Shown here: positions 17,466 to 21,718 of the stretch, piece by piece
How the letters are laid out: each line of letters opens with the position of its first letter
How positions within the stretch are numbered: the first letter of the stretch is position 1
DNA from: Thermoplasmatota archaeon
GTDB lineage: Archaea > Thermoplasmatota > Thermoplasmata > UBA10834
Length of the DNA: 64,000 nt
Assembly (NCBI GenBank): GCA_040751795.1
Contig: JBFMHR010000003.1
Span: 192,001 to 256,000, forward strand
Direction: 5' to 3'
Program-made: the position numbers and the translations under genes
Notes under the pieces: generated by a model
Database searches by the model: none
What the model saw: only the letters and a program-made list of their open reading frames with translations
Told to the model about the DNA's origin: nothing

Positions 17466-18755
17466 ATGATGTCCCCGAAGGGAGTTGCACGGAACAGCGG
17501 CCTGCGAGACCAGACCGACAGGAACCAGAACGGCCTCAACAACCCGCCCGTTGCAAAGCCCAGGCTCGGGCGCATCAAGCTGGTCGACACGACCTGCAGG
17601 GACGGGGAGCAGATGCCGGGGATCTCCTTCACCTGCGACGAGAAGGTCGGCATCGCCCTCGGGCTCGAGGGGCTCGGGGTGGAGCAGATCGAGACCTTCG
17701 CCACGTACAACGACAGCGACAGGAGGTGCGCGGAAATCCTCAGCGCCCGCCTGGGCAGCGCCTCGCTGATGGGGTGGAACAGGATGGTCAAGGCCGACGT
17801 CGACGACTCCGTCTCGCACGGGGTGGACGCCGTGTCGGTCTCGACCGACACCTCCGACATAGCGCTCGCGAGCAAGCTCAGGATCACGAGGGCGCAGCAG
17901 ATCGATGCGCTGGTGGACTGCGTCGAGCACGCCAAGGCGCACGGCGTCTACGTGTGCTTCAACGCGGGCGACGCCACGAGGACGGACCCCGACTACCTCG
18001 TCGAGTTCGCGAGGGCCGGGCTCGAGGCGGGCGGGGACAGGTTCAGGATCTGCGACACGGTCGGGGTCCTCACCCCCGCAGGTGCATCGTCCCTCGTCTC
18101 CAAGGTCATGTCCAGCGTCGACATCGACGTCGAGTTCCACGCCCACAACGACTTCGGGCTGGCGGTGGCCAACGCCCTCGCCGCGTGCGAGGCAGCCGCC
18201 GCGTTCCCCGAGAGGACGCTGTGGCTATCCACCACGGTGAACGGGCTGGGGGAGCGCGCCGGCAACGTGCCGCTCGAGGTCCTGGTGATGAACCTCCGGG
18301 CCCACTACGGGGTGGAGACTTACAGCGCGGAGCGCATCATGCCGCTCTGCAGGCGCGTCGAGAAGGCCTCGGGGCTGGGGATACCGCCCAACCACCCCGT
18401 CGTCGGCGGGAACATGTTCACGCACAAGTCCGGCATACACGTGGACGGCGTCCTGAAGGAGCCGGCGCTCTACGAGGCCTTCGACCCTGGGCCGCTCGGC
18501 CTGTCCAGGAGGATAGCGATAGGGAAGCACTCGGGGAAGGCCTCCATCAGGCACAAGCTCGACCAGATGGGCCTCTCGGTCCCGCCCGGGGCGGTGGAGG
18601 CGATCCGCTGCGAGGTGAGCGCTTCTGGGGAGAGGGTGAAGAGGGACCTCACCGACGATGAGTTCGCGCGGATATGCTCGAAGTACGCGGGCGGCTCGTC
18701 CCCCAACGAGAAGAGGGTCGCGGCGATCGACGCCAACATCCCGTGGGGGAAGTGA
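17466..18755 (+). CDS. DRE-TIM acyltransferase (homocitrate synthase NifV/LeuA family; candidate Re-citrate synthase)
   Basis: DTTCRDGEQ, HAHNDFGLA, NGLGERAGN, HKSGIHVDG, GKHSG; no LeuA regulatory domain. Confidence 0.88.
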   Translation: MMSPKGVARNSGLRDQTDRNQNGLNNPPVAKPRLGRIKLVDTTCRDGEQMPGISFTCDEKVGIALGLEGLGVEQIETFATYNDSDRRCAEILSARLGSASLMGWNRMVKADVDDSVSHGVDAVSVSTDTSDIALASKLRITRAQQIDALVDCVEHAKAHGVYVCFNAGDATRTDPDYLVEFARAGLEAGGDRFRICDTVGVLTPAGASSLVSKVMSSVDIDVEFHAHNDFGLAVANALAACEAAAAFPERTLWLSTTVNGLGERAGNVPLEVLVMNLRAHYGVETYSAERIMPLCRRVEKASGLGIPPNHPVVGGNMFTHKSGIHVDGVLKEPALYEAFDPGPLGLSRRIAIGKHSGKASIRHKLDQMGLSVPPGAVEAIRCEVSASGERVKRDLTDDEFARICSKYAGGSSPNEKRVAAIDANIPWGK

Positions 18756-18769
18756 GGAGGGGGACCGGC

Positions 18770-20023
18770 ATGGGCAAGACGATCGCGGAGAAGGTGCTGA
18801 GCGACCGCTCGGGCTCCGACTGCTGGGCGGGGGACATGACCGTCGCGTCCGTGGACTTCTGCATGGCCCAGGACGGGACGTCCACGATGATGATGCGGGA
18901 GCTGGAGTCCCTCGGGTTCGAGGCGCCCCGCACCCGCCGCGGCATGGCCATGGTGATAGACCACAGCTCGCCCAGCCCTTCGGCCAACATATCCAGGATC
19001 CACGGCCGCATCAGGGCGTTCGCCCGGTCCCACGGCATCCCGCTCTGCGACATAGGCGGGGGCGTGTGCCACCAGGTGGTCCCGGAGAGCGGGAAGGTCC
19101 TCCCCGGCGACCTGGTCGTCGGGGCGGACTCGCACACGTGCACATACGGGGCCCTGAACGCCTGCTCGACGGGGCTCGGCTCCGCCGACGTCGCCGCGGC
19201 CGCGTTCACCGGGAGGCTGTGGTTCAGGGTGCCAGAGTCGTACCGGGTCGAGCTCTCGGGGCGGCTCCCTGCGCGCGTAAGCACGAAGGACCTGGCCCTG
19301 GACCTGATAGGCCAGGTCGGCGCCGACGGCGCAACCTACAAGTCCATTGAGTACTCAGGCGACGGGCTCGCATCGCTGCCGATGGACGGCAGGATGACAG
19401 TCGCCAACATGGCAGTGGAGATGGGGGCGAAGTTCTCCCCGTTCCCGTTCGATTCGTACACGCGCGAATGGTACGCGTCCAGGGGGGTCGACCCCGGGCC
19501 GGGGGTGTCCGGGGACCCCGATGCCGATTACGAGCGGGGGCTCGACGTCGACCTGGCCAGCATCGTGCCGAAGGTCGCCGCCCCTCACCAGGTGGACAAC
19601 GTGCGCGATGTCTCGGAGCTGGCGGGCACGCCCGTGCAGCAGGTCTTCGTCGGGACATGCACCAACGGCCGGCTTGACGACCTAAGGTCCGTCGTCTCCG
19701 TGATGAGGGGGCGCCGGGTGATGGACGGCGTCCGCATGATCGTCGCGCCGGCCTCCAGGGAGGTCATGCTCAGAGCGACGGATGAAGGGGTGATGTCGCA
19801 GCTGGTCAGGTCGGGGGCGGTGGTCATGCCTCCAGGGTGCGGGCCCTGCGTCGGGACTCACGCGGGCGTGCCGGCTGACGGAGAGAACGTGGTGTCGACG
19901 GCGAACCGGAACTTCAGGGGCAGGATGGGCAACAACCAGGACGTGAACATATTCCTGGTCTCCCCTGAGACCGCTGCGGCGACGGCTGTCACGGGCGAGA
20001 TCACGGACCCGAGGGAGGTGTGA
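18770..20023 (+). CDS. 3-isopropylmalate dehydratase/homoaconitase-family large subunit
   Basis: KTIAEK, GVCHQ, GADSHTCT, GTCTNGR, CGPCVG, STANRNF. Confidence 0.93.
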   Translation: MGKTIAEKVLSDRSGSDCWAGDMTVASVDFCMAQDGTSTMMMRELESLGFEAPRTRRGMAMVIDHSSPSPSANISRIHGRIRAFARSHGIPLCDIGGGVCHQVVPESGKVLPGDLVVGADSHTCTYGALNACSTGLGSADVAAAAFTGRLWFRVPESYRVELSGRLPARVSTKDLALDLIGQVGADGATYKSIEYSGDGLASLPMDGRMTVANMAVEMGAKFSPFPFDSYTREWYASRGVDPGPGVSGDPDADYERGLDVDLASIVPKVAAPHQVDNVRDVSELAGTPVQQVFVGTCTNGRLDDLRSVVSVMRGRRVMDGVRMIVAPASREVMLRATDEGVMSQLVRSGAVVMPPGCGPCVGTHAGVPADGENVVSTANRNFRGRMGNNQDVNIFLVSPETAAATAVTGEITDPREV

Positions 20024-20026
20024 GGC

Positions 20027-20539
20027 ATGGGTGACATACTCAAAGGGACCGCGCACAGGTTCGAGCCGAACGACGACATCAACACCGACTACATCATATC
20101 GGGCCGCTACAAGTTCAAGATCGACGACATGGACGACCTCGCCAGGCACGTCATGGAGGACATCGACCCGACATTCGCCTCGAGGGTGGCGCCGGGCGAC
20201 TTCATAGTCGCGGGGCGCAACTTCGGATGCGGCTCCAGCAGGGAGCAGGCCCCCAGGGCGCTGAAGGCCGCGGGGGTGTCGGCGGTGCTGGCGAAGTCCT
20301 ACGCGCGCATCTTCTACAGGAGCTCGTTCAACGTCGGCCTGCCCCTGGTGCAGTGCGACACCGACTGGGTGCTCCAGGGGGACGGGCTGACCGTCGACCT
20401 CGCCACGGGCGAGGTCTCCTGCCCGGCACGCGGGACGGGCGCGAAGGCGTCCGCTGTCCCCCGGCTCATGCAGGCGCTGCTCGACGACGGGGGCCTGGTC
20501 CCCCACTTGAGGAAACACGGGGGATTCTCCCTCGAGTGA
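20027..20539 (+). CDS. 3-isopropylmalate dehydratase/homoaconitase-family small subunit
   Basis: [29 protein letters not shown]. Confidence 0.93.
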
Positions 20540-20551
20540 GGAAGTGGGGCC

Positions 20552-21718
20552 ATGCCAATCGAGACCAGCGCATCGGATGTCCCCTTCATACCTGGGGACG
20601 GGATCGGACCGGAGATAATGGAGGCCGCACGGATGGTGCTGGACGCGGCCGTCTCCATCTCCACCGGCGGGCGCAGGTCGATCCGGTGGGTCGAGCTGCA
20701 GGCCGGCGAGAGCTCGTACGCGTCATCGGGCGAGTGGCTGCCAGCGGCAACGCTCTCCTCCATACGCAGGGCGGGCGTCGCCATGAAGGGCCCGCTGGCC
20801 ACACCGGTGGGCGGGGGGATAAGGAGCCTGAACGTGGCCCTCCGGCAGGCCCTGGACCTGTACGCGTCCGTGAGGCCGGTGCGGCACATCACGGGCGTCC
20901 CATCGCCTGTGAGGCACCCCGAGTCCGTCGACCTGGTGATATTCAGGGAGAACACCGAGGACGTCTACGCGGGGATCGAATGGGGCAGGGGTACGGAGGG
21001 AGCCAGGAAGGTCCGCGAGTTCCTCAGGGACTCGCTGGGGATCGACGTCCCGGAAGACTCCGGTCTCGGCCTCAAGCCCATCTCGGAGCGCGCCACCAAG
21101 AGGCTGGTGAGGGCGGCGATCTCGTACGCCGCCGGCAGCGGGAGGGGGGTGGTCACCCTGGTCCACAAGGGGAACATCATGAAGTCCACCGAGGGGGCGT
21201 TCAGGGACTGGGGGTACGAGGTCGCGCGGGACGAGTTCCCGGGGACCGCCGTGTTCAGCGCGGCCGCGGCCCAAGTCGGCAAGGTCCTCGTCAACGACAG
21301 GATCGCCGACAACATGTTCCAGCAGGTCCTCACGAGGCCTTCGGAGTACTCAGTCCTCGCGACCCCAAACCTCAACGGGGACTACCTCGCCGACGCGTGC
21401 GCCGCCCAGGTCGGCGGCCTCGGGTTCGCGCCGGGCGCGAACATCGGCGACGCGGCGGCCGTGTTCGAGCCGGTCCACGGGACGGCGCCCAAGTACGCCG
21501 GAAAGGACGTCGCCAACCCCTGCGCGCTGGTGCTCTCCGGGGCCCTCATGCTCGAGCGCCTGGACATGGAGGACGCGGCCAGGTCGGTCCTCAGGGCGCT
21601 CGAGGGGACCCTCGCCGACGGCGTCGCCACGGAGGACGTGGCCAGGGCGAAGGCCGGGGTCAGGGCCGTCGGGACGCGGAGGTTCTCGGAGGAGGTCGTG
21701 TCCAGGATGACGGGGTGA
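20552..21718 (+). CDS. icd: NADP-dependent isocitrate dehydrogenase
   Basis: GDGIGPE, TPVGGGIRSLNVALRQ, FRENTEDVYAGIE, HKGNIMK, NLNGDY, HGTAPKYAG. Confidence 0.92.
   Translation: MPIETSASDVPFIPGDGIGPEIMEAARMVLDAAVSISTGGRRSIRWVELQAGESSYASSGEWLPAATLSSIRRAGVAMKGPLATPVGGGIRSLNVALRQALDLYASVRPVRHITGVPSPVRHPESVDLVIFRENTEDVYAGIEWGRGTEGARKVREFLRDSLGIDVPEDSGLGLKPISERATKRLVRAAISYAAGSGRGVVTLVHKGNIMKSTEGAFRDWGYEVARDEFPGTAVFSAAAAQVGKVLVNDRIADNMFQQVLTRPSEYSVLATPNLNGDYLADACAAQVGGLGFAPGANIGDAAAVFEPVHGTAPKYAGKDVANPCALVLSGALMLERLDMEDAARSVLRALEGTLADGVATEDVARAKAGVRAVGTRRFSEEVVSRMTG

Follow-up and report, generated by a model that had tools for sequence, protein, structure and literature searches.

A probable operon for 2-oxoglutarate synthesis in an order of uncultured Thermoplasmata, with a candidate two-subunit aconitase

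Within a 64,000-nucleotide stretch of a draft Thermoplasmatota genome (hereafter, the window), four tightly packed genes between positions 17,466 and 21,718 probably constitute a single operon for producing 2-oxoglutarate through the oxidative arm of the citric acid cycle. The window spans positions 192001-256000 of contig C23 in an assembly of 2.05 Mb, comprising 53 contigs and 92.8% complete. A previous reading of the letters alone (the original prediction) had picked out the close packing of these genes, and translation of the open reading frames bears this out: all four lie on the same strand, separated by gaps of 14, 3, and 12 bases. The features are as follows.

17455..17464, + strand: GGAAGGTGAG, Shine-Dalgarno-like, directly 5' of the ATG at 17466 as read from the sequence
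17466..18755, + strand: LeuA/NifV-family 2-oxoacid:acetyl-CoA synthase without regulatory domain, proposed citrate synthase (Re-type presumed); 429 residues, Pfam HMGL-like and HCS_D2 only
18770..20023, + strand: LeuC-type large subunit, proposed aconitase large subunit; 417 residues, Pfam Aconitase
20027..20539, + strand: LeuD-type small subunit with loop GRYKFK, proposed aconitase small subunit; 170 residues, Pfam Aconitase_C
20552..21718, + strand: NADP-dependent isocitrate dehydrogenase of the E. coli / B. subtilis / A. fulgidus type; 388 residues, Pfam Iso_dh

In the scheme we propose, the synthase would condense acetyl-CoA with oxaloacetate to give citrate, presumably by attack on the Re-face; to our knowledge, all characterized citrate synthases of the LeuA/NifV family are Re-face enzymes. 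A LeuC/LeuD heterodimer bearing a [4Fe-4S] cluster would then isomerize citrate to isocitrate by way of cis-aconitate; its small subunit has a basic RYKFK loop where isopropylmalate isomerase (IPMI) has a hydrophobic one. Lastly, the NADP-isocitrate dehydrogenase (IDH) would yield 2-oxoglutarate by oxidative decarboxylation, feeding glutamate synthesis. The searched genomes of the order yielded no canonical citrate synthase and no canonical aconitase, and the operon would substitute for both. Operon structure, co-conservation and co-loss of the genes, missing alternatives, and recurrence across phyla all argue for the two unusual steps, alongside pocket residues in the case of the predicted citrate synthase and loop residues in the case of the predicted aconitase. 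For the latter, it is gene context that points to aconitate hydratase (EC 4.2.1.3) activity.

The best-supported step of the pathway is the last. By family membership, gene 4 encodes an NADP-isocitrate dehydrogenase of the prokaryotic homodimeric type: it scores 493.9 against the NCBIfam NADP-IDH model NF005425, above the curated cut-off of 490, although a second model, TIGR00183, gives 517.9 against a cut-off of 567.3. A PDB search placed the A. fulgidus IDH (2iv0; 463 bits), B. subtilis IDH (442), and E. coli IDH (421) as its top solved relatives, versus only ~176 bits for homoisocitrate dehydrogenases (HICDHs) and at most 160 for isopropylmalate dehydrogenases (IPMDHs). The contention that this enzyme is IDH-like, rather than akin to LeuB, HICDH, or AksF, is therefore upheld by the 421-463 bits to IDHs and by the motifs on which it was founded, all present in the translation: GGGIRSLN, containing the Ser/Asn isocitrate motif, EDVYAGIE, and HGTAPKY. 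The sequence also contains GGGIRSLNVALRQ and an extended HGTAPKYAG.

The LeuC-type and LeuD-type subunits share the architecture of the aconitase superfamily in its split LeuCD form. Aconitase and Aconitase_C domains are both present, as are GTCTNGR and GCGPCVG, whose cysteines we take to be the three Fe-S ligands, and GCGSSREQ, whose GSSRE serine we presume to be catalytic, both roles following the mitochondrial aconitase literature; the large subunit additionally displays GADSHT and NRNFRGRMG. Both subunits match subfamily-level NCBIfam models only, the LeuC-type one remaining under the equivalog cut-offs for IPMI, homoaconitase (HACN), and aconitase alike. For the IPMI equivalogs, LEU2 gives 412.7 versus a cut-off of 610.65 and leud 144.5 versus 245.85; for homoaconitase, HacA gives 388.9 versus 550 and, for the LeuD-type subunit, HacB2_Meth 165.9 versus 230. 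Aconitase models likewise fall short (PRK07229, 340 versus 612; TIGR01342, 281 versus 719; TIGR01340, 152 versus 825), with AcnA models reaching at most 100 against cut-offs of at least 686.

It is the specificity loop of the small subunit that sets the pair apart. This loop had been singled out as GRYKFK, unlike those of characterized archaeal IPMI and HACN, and PDB alignments agree: RYKFK here aligns with RYLVY in M. jannaschii IPMI (3vba) and PYLRT in M. jannaschii HACN (2pkp). Among 17 LeuD sequences of the family, the loop reads GRYKFK in 15, with KFR and KFS once each. In a tree of the large subunits, the LeuCs that pair with YKFK LeuDs, including that of the window, form a single clade of 18 rows (SH-aLRT, an approximate likelihood ratio test, 93), apart from the IPMI, YLRT, YTYT, RHLDSY, FHLR, and fused-aconitase clades. 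LeuCD pairs of the YTYT-loop clade are present elsewhere in the class, in other families.

The synthase, as had been claimed, belongs among NifV/LeuA-like enzymes without a regulatory domain, carrying HMGL-like and HCS_D2 domains only, and it too remains under every NCBIfam equivalog cut-off. Its second-best NCBIfam model is nifV (TIGR02660; 366.5, cut-off 462.9), and LysS (TIGR02146) gives 295.8 against 413.55. We aligned it with solved homocitrate and isopropylmalate synthases and with 148 non-orthologous representatives, interpreting pocket positions by roles familiar from the homocitrate synthase literature, which we take to apply here. Pocket residue Trp104 corresponds to His in lysine-type homocitrate synthases and to Leu in isopropylmalate synthase (IPMS); the lysine-type pocket His and Arg are replaced by Trp and Cys. 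Asn166 occupies a position at which NifV-type enzymes have Gly. With Asn where other enzymes have Gly or Ser, the pocket would be about one carbon shorter, suiting oxaloacetate better than 2-oxoglutarate. The pairing of Trp with Asn is common to the window synthase and to homologues from Dehalococcoidia, Caldanaerobacter, Syntrophomonas, and Pelotomaculum. Other features are peculiar to the lineage: Cys44, within the TLRDGEQ motif, Asp128, and Gly168 occur in 0/148 of the non-orthologous representatives.

Conservation of the operon was surveyed across 40 relatives: 24 of family f1, 3 of its sister family f2, and 13 of other families of the class. Synthase orthologues (above 50% identity) were detected in 20/24 f1 and 3/3 f2 genomes, and in 0/13 of the other families. 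The prediction required the cluster to be conserved, and the order synthase-leuC-leuD-idh is kept in 16/16 complete f1 loci at 62-84% identity, with a 17th locus interrupted by a contig end. In f2 the synthase stands alone, and all three genomes carry a leuC-leuD(GKYKFK)-IDH cluster elsewhere, whose IDH is short and bears the motif PIGSGFRSVN.

The four f1 genomes without a synthase are G007 (69% complete), G009 (79%), G015 (96%), and G018 (98%, on one contig). In G015 and G018 the synthase, the YKFK LeuD, and the IDH are all absent, and the other two LeuCD paralogues are retained; this joint absence indicates that the module was lost as a unit. A 96-residue C-terminal IDH fragment in G018 (G018:C1:1401795-1402085, - strand; 55% identity) looks like a remnant of the lost operon. 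In a further f1 genome, the LeuC match is split between two frames (G021:C68, locus L038, 5185-6475; query residues 1-135 and 126-417), which is a frameshift or an assembly error.

The remainder of the source genome was expected to lack gltA and acnA and to carry separate leucine genes, and searches conformed on both counts. Canonical citrate synthase (PF00285) gave 0 matches and AcnA was not found; the same is true of 28/28 genomes of the order (0/28 for each), versus 10/13 genomes of other families with PF00285 and 3/13 with AcnA. The leucine genes form their own leuA-leuC-leuD-leuB operon on contig C12, where the LeuD loop reads AEHLVT. Aconitase-family large subunits number just three, each of them LeuC-type, on C12, C23, and C45; the genome also has three HMGL-type synthases and three Iso_dh genes. 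A second set of such genes is scattered over C34, C45, and C1, with generic IPMS/IPMI/IPMDH-like scores and a LeuD loop of GRHLGSYDP. The LeuCD pair of that set (G000:C45:28703-30461; L003 1429-3187), with loop GRHL[GD]SYDP, forms its own RHLDSY clade and is kept across the order, also in genomes without the operon. A gene for glutamate dehydrogenase, a consumer of 2-oxoglutarate, is present.

Other roles for the synthase were considered and set aside. A NifV role finds no nitrogenase to serve (PF00148, 0/11 genomes searched), and the NifV-type Gly is missing from the pocket. A role in coenzyme B synthesis is rejected because mcrA was not found in the source genome. Lysine synthesis via LysW is likewise not supported, lysW not having been found there; this last argument is weak, because lysA was not found either.

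The same association of genes recurs far beyond the order. A scan of species-representative genomes returned at least 80 named synthase loci, a sample on which the following counts are based. Nearest among the matches listed are synthases of Hydrothermarchaeales and Altiarchaeota, followed by those of Clostridium, Caldanaerobacter, Syntrophomonas, Desulfosporosinus, Pelotomaculum, Coriobacteriia, Actinomycetota, Chloroflexota/Dehalococcoidia, and Methanomassiliicoccales. Trp+Asn synthases number 31 among the 80 listed; in 22 cases the gene neighbors a member of the aconitase family or an Iso_dh gene, four of these neighbors being fused aconitases of ~640 residues. For the 25 Trp+Gly synthases the corresponding figure is 0/25, and the two such loci that were checked adjoin nifH/nifD or nifB.

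The YKFK loop follows a similar pattern. Nine of the 80 listed loci have a LeuD with G[KR][YH]KFK, in Pelotomaculum, Syntrophomonas (2), Coriobacteriia (2), Eubacteriales, Actinomycetota, and Methanomassiliicoccales (2), and in 9/9 it stands directly after a LeuC and a related synthase. In 6/9 a dehydrogenase with the motif PxGxGF[RK]SxN comes next, the top NCBIfam matches being IDH families; one of these six is a full NADP-IDH at 680 bits. Four other listed loci have a fused aconitase of ~640 residues in place of LeuCD. By contrast, the only YLRT (homoaconitase-type) cluster among the matches listed, L096, has an AksF-like dehydrogenase without the PxGxGF[RK]SxN motif. The loop is present in 120/120 of the best homologues of the Pelotomaculum small subunit, among which are proteins from cultured members of Desulfofundulus, Pelotomaculum, Desulfovirgula, and Desulfotomaculum that carry the name isopropylmalate or dimethylmalate dehydratase.

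Phylogeny of the synthase presents a difficulty for assignment as a citrate synthase, and several other observations weigh on the same side. When a library of 50%-identity representatives was searched, the orthologue cluster came first with 704 bits, followed by a protein with 315 bits and 45% identity, so that the clade is sharply set apart; identity is 40-44% to homologues from Dehalococcoidia and Thermoanaerobacteraceae, and 40-45% when the Syntrophomonas and Pelotomaculum homologues are counted in. The synthase might have been expected to nest among bacterial Re-citrate synthases, and comparison with these had been put forward as a check. This expectation failed in a quick maximum-likelihood tree of 91 synthases, in which the bacterial Re-citrate synthases are themselves putative ones: the order's clade (10 rows, support 100, stem 0.65) lies outside theirs, joining an unresolved node that also holds the archaeal IPMS/CimA/Aks group and the sequences from Hydrothermarchaeales and Altiarchaeota. 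Trp/Asn synthases of bacteria and Methanomassiliicoccales group instead with NifV across a branch of 0.71. Constraining all 40 Trp/Asn rows to one clade is rejected (approximately unbiased test, p-AU 0.0037), in a comparison that involves long branches and a 40-row group defined after the tree was seen. Either the Trp/Asn signature arose more than once, therefore, or NifV lost it. Taken together, the tree and the rejected constraint give no ground for classifying the synthase as an orthologue of known Re-citrate synthases, and its link to the characterized enzymes is one of taxonomy and gene context.

The other adverse points concern chemistry, supply, and sampling. The top solved relative of the synthase is the S. 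acidocaldarius homocitrate synthase (6ktq; 248 bits). The common Glu of the xFxxED motif is Gly in f1, which could signify an altered mechanism; the RF[ST]xED motif of homocitrate synthases has become CFNAGD in f1 and CFNAED in f2. Neither type of phosphoenolpyruvate carboxylase, neither type of phosphoenolpyruvate carboxykinase, and no pyruvate-carboxylase-type HMGL domain was found in the source genome, so oxaloacetate would have to derive from aspartate or malate. The organism may depend on imported amino acids, with oxaloacetate drawn from aspartate. Absences in this genome mean "not found" in a draft of 53 contigs. The Trp/Asn signature, moreover, was derived here from gene context rather than from an established rule, and the related genomes in which it was counted are not independent samples.

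A second change accompanies the missing Glu. The f1 synthases read STDTSD and CFNAGD, whereas f2 and other enzymes read SIATSD and CFNAED; Asp128 was gained and the motif Glu168 lost together. If the residues lie on adjacent strands, as we assume, the active-site carboxylate may have been relocated.

What else could such an operon do? The family resemblances of the synthase could point to homocitrate: if it made homocitrate and the LeuCD pair acted as a homoaconitase, the two would lead from 2-oxoglutarate to 2-oxoadipate for lysine, coenzyme B, or the iron-molybdenum (FeMo) cofactor, with the IDH serving separately. The 248 bits to the S. acidocaldarius enzyme, the 366.5 bits to nifV as second-best model, the 165.9 bits of the LeuD to HacB2_Meth, and the JGI name "homocitrate synthase NifV" for the orthologues all lean this way, yet every one of the model scores is under its cut-off (nifV 462.9, LysS 413.55, HacA 550, HacB 230). 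The pocket has Trp and Cys for the lysine-type His and Arg, and Asn for the NifV-type Gly; the small-subunit loop is not YLRT; mcrA, lysW, and nitrogenase were not found; and the IDH is kept in the operon in 16/16 loci and lost along with the other genes. We consider this explanation very unlikely. An unlikely but somewhat stronger contender would have the synthase and LeuCD act on another 2-oxoacid, whether pyruvate, giving citramalate for isoleucine, or an unknown acid, and isocitrate come from elsewhere, leaving the IDH as the sole member of the citric acid branch. The LeuA/NifV family is notoriously promiscuous, and the synthase clade is unique (Cys44 in 0/148 representatives), with a tree position near IPMS/CimA-type enzymes that is unresolved. 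The C45 LeuCD paralogue, with loop GRHLGSYDP, could be the aconitase instead. However, loops of IPMI and citramalate isomerase are hydrophobic (RYLVY), against two lysines in that of the window pair; IDH-type dehydrogenases accompany the YKFK clade in several phyla; and G015 and G018 retain the leu-operon and C45-type paralogues but have neither the IDH nor the YKFK pair. This last pattern ties the IDH to the YKFK pair and not to the C45 type.

It is also conceivable, if highly improbable, that the module runs in reverse, as in the reversed oxidative tricarboxylic acid (TCA) cycle: 2-oxoglutarate, for example from glutamate breakdown, would be carboxylated to isocitrate, and citrate would then be cleaved to acetyl-CoA and oxaloacetate. 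The IDH and aconitase reactions are reversible, glutamate dehydrogenase is present, and citrate cleavage would be one possible source of oxaloacetate in a genome where no anaplerotic enzyme for it was found. Nothing in the data specifically favors this direction, though, and we know of no report of reversal by a LeuA-family synthase. Where experimental data exist, related bacterial enzymes supply 2-oxoglutarate oxidatively, according to PMC12016533 and PMC8027424. The oxidative pathway from oxaloacetate to 2-oxoglutarate remains the most economical account, and each of its rivals explains the conserved IDH partner less well.

Parts of this picture are familiar. Known already are Re-citrate synthases of the LeuA/NifV family, their mis-annotation, and the adjacency of aconitase in clostridia. 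The placing of Re-citrate synthases in this family, on which the original prediction relied, agrees with PMC12016533, where they are described as routinely mis-annotated as homocitrate or isopropylmalate synthase and as occurring in anaerobic Firmicutes, Chloroflexota, Thermodesulfobacteriota, and Ignicoccus. In C. thermocellum a candidate Re-citrate synthase gene adjoins an aconitase gene (PMC6115520). Split subunits, by contrast, are listed only for HACN, IPMI, and AcnX type II in the introduction of a 2021 overview (PMC8184944). Searches of open-access text found no mention of a two-subunit or heterodimeric aconitase, although subscription journals and supplements may hold earlier proposals, for instance on Dehalococcoides, Ignicoccus, or Syntrophomonas genomes. 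For Re-citrate synthase in Thermoplasmata the same text gave no relevant link and one unrelated mention; combined with Methanomassiliicoccales or homoaconitase, it gave only a bare listing and a coenzyme B context. In three Thermoplasmatota genome papers, TCA terms gave no matches. The most novel part of our proposal is an unrecognized two-subunit aconitase; the whole is a well-supported variant of a known pathway.

Comparison with the nearest known systems sharpens these distinctions. Bacterial Re-citrate synthases (EC 2.3.3.3; the C. kluyveri/Syntrophus and Dehalococcoides/C. difficile/Thermoanaerobacter/Heliomicrobium types) likewise belong to the HMGL-like family and lack a regulatory domain. 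They occur in anaerobes without Si-citrate synthase and are mis-annotated (PMC12016533). The window synthase, which shares the Trp/Asn signature with the Dehalococcoidia, Caldanaerobacter, Syntrophomonas, and Pelotomaculum homologues, stands beside aconitase-family and IDH genes in a genome where no Si-citrate synthase was found. It differs in being only 40-45% identical to those homologues, in forming its own long-stemmed clade confined to one Thermoplasmata order in the samples searched, and in having Cys in TLRDGEQ, with f1 having Gly for the motif Glu along with Asp128. Clostridial clusters follow the same three-step logic with genes side by side: at L057, L059, and L064 a fused aconitase accompanies a related synthase, joined at L057 and L064 by an IDH. 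Their aconitase, however, is a fused protein of ~640 residues with an LPLRSN loop, unlike the window's two LeuC/LeuD subunits, which come from another clade.

The M. jannaschii enzymes IPMI (3vba/4kp1) and HACN (2pkp/4kp2) resemble the window pair in two-subunit architecture, Fe-S cysteines, and GSSRE, with large subunits at 366 and 323 bits and small subunits at 146 and 128 bits, respectively. The window pair is distinguished by its RYKFK loop, scores under equivalog cut-offs, and separate clade, and by its partners, a citrate-synthase candidate and an IDH rather than LeuB or AksF. AcnA, AcnB, mitochondrial aconitase, and iron regulatory protein (IRP) share the superfamily and the proposed reaction with the pair but are single polypeptides, to whose models the window proteins score far under the cut-offs.

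A broader conjecture, which we hold tentatively as plausible though short of probable, is that the G[KR]YKFK LeuCD clade is a widespread unrecognized two-subunit aconitase. Many strict anaerobes (Desulfotomaculaceae, Syntrophomonas, Coriobacteriia, some Methanomassiliicoccales, and this order) would rely on it as their working aconitase, annotated everywhere as isopropylmalate dehydratase, and it would partly close the "missing aconitase" gap for which AcnX was once wrongly held responsible. As part of the same conjecture, the synthase of the Thermoplasmata order would represent a distinct lineage of LeuA/NifV citrate synthase with a moved carboxylate (Glu168 to Gly, Asp128 gained).

If this is true, an order of uncultured Thermoplasmata and many anaerobic bacteria build their glutamate skeleton with enzymes filed under leucine or lysine synthesis, and metabolic reconstructions err in showing the oxidative TCA branch as missing and leucine genes as surplus. 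Mislabeling by automated pipelines was foreseen, and the databases provide instances: synthase orthologues are named "homoaconitate hydratase" at NCBI and "homocitrate synthase NifV" at JGI, and YKFK small subunits 3-isopropylmalate or 2,3-dimethylmalate dehydratase. In NCBI records P0036, P0080, and P0107, "homoaconitate hydratase" is the wrong enzyme class for an HMGL-type synthase. Such annotation could be corrected with two simple sequence markers, the YKFK loop of the small subunit and the Trp/Asn signature of the synthase. An aconitase of split LeuCD type would also add a functional class to the superfamily and a natural example of specificity switching in a flexible loop. Cultured hosts of the YKFK LeuCD clade exist in Desulfofundulus kuznetsovii and Pelotomaculum species.

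A different loop type offers a second candidate for a split aconitase. Two closed Thermoplasmata genomes of low GC content, both from another family (L178, G039:C1:1399000-1410000, genes L178 5377-8315 on the - strand; and L179, G087), have a canonical citrate synthase (Pfam 473.7 bits) followed directly by LeuC and then by a LeuD with loop GRYFHLRTNLPEL. Since this LeuCD comes directly after citrate synthase, a LeuCD-type aconitase role would appear to have been taken up more than once in the class. The same loop type also occurs beside Trp/Asn synthases and IDH in Thermoleophilia and Actinomycetota (L076, L105).

Several minor observations concern the borders of the operon in the window. In the AT-rich region on its 5' side, TCAACCATT occurs twice (17281-17289 and 17344-17352), the copies 63 bases apart, with ATATAT at 17330-17335 between them; the pair could be a promoter or regulator site, chance being also possible for a 9-mer repeat in 265 bases. 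Because GGAAGGTGAG precedes the ATG at 17466, we place the start of the synthase there and not at the upstream TTG at 17388. The upstream neighbor of the operon encodes enolase, and a convergent Na+/H+ exchanger gene abuts its 3' end.

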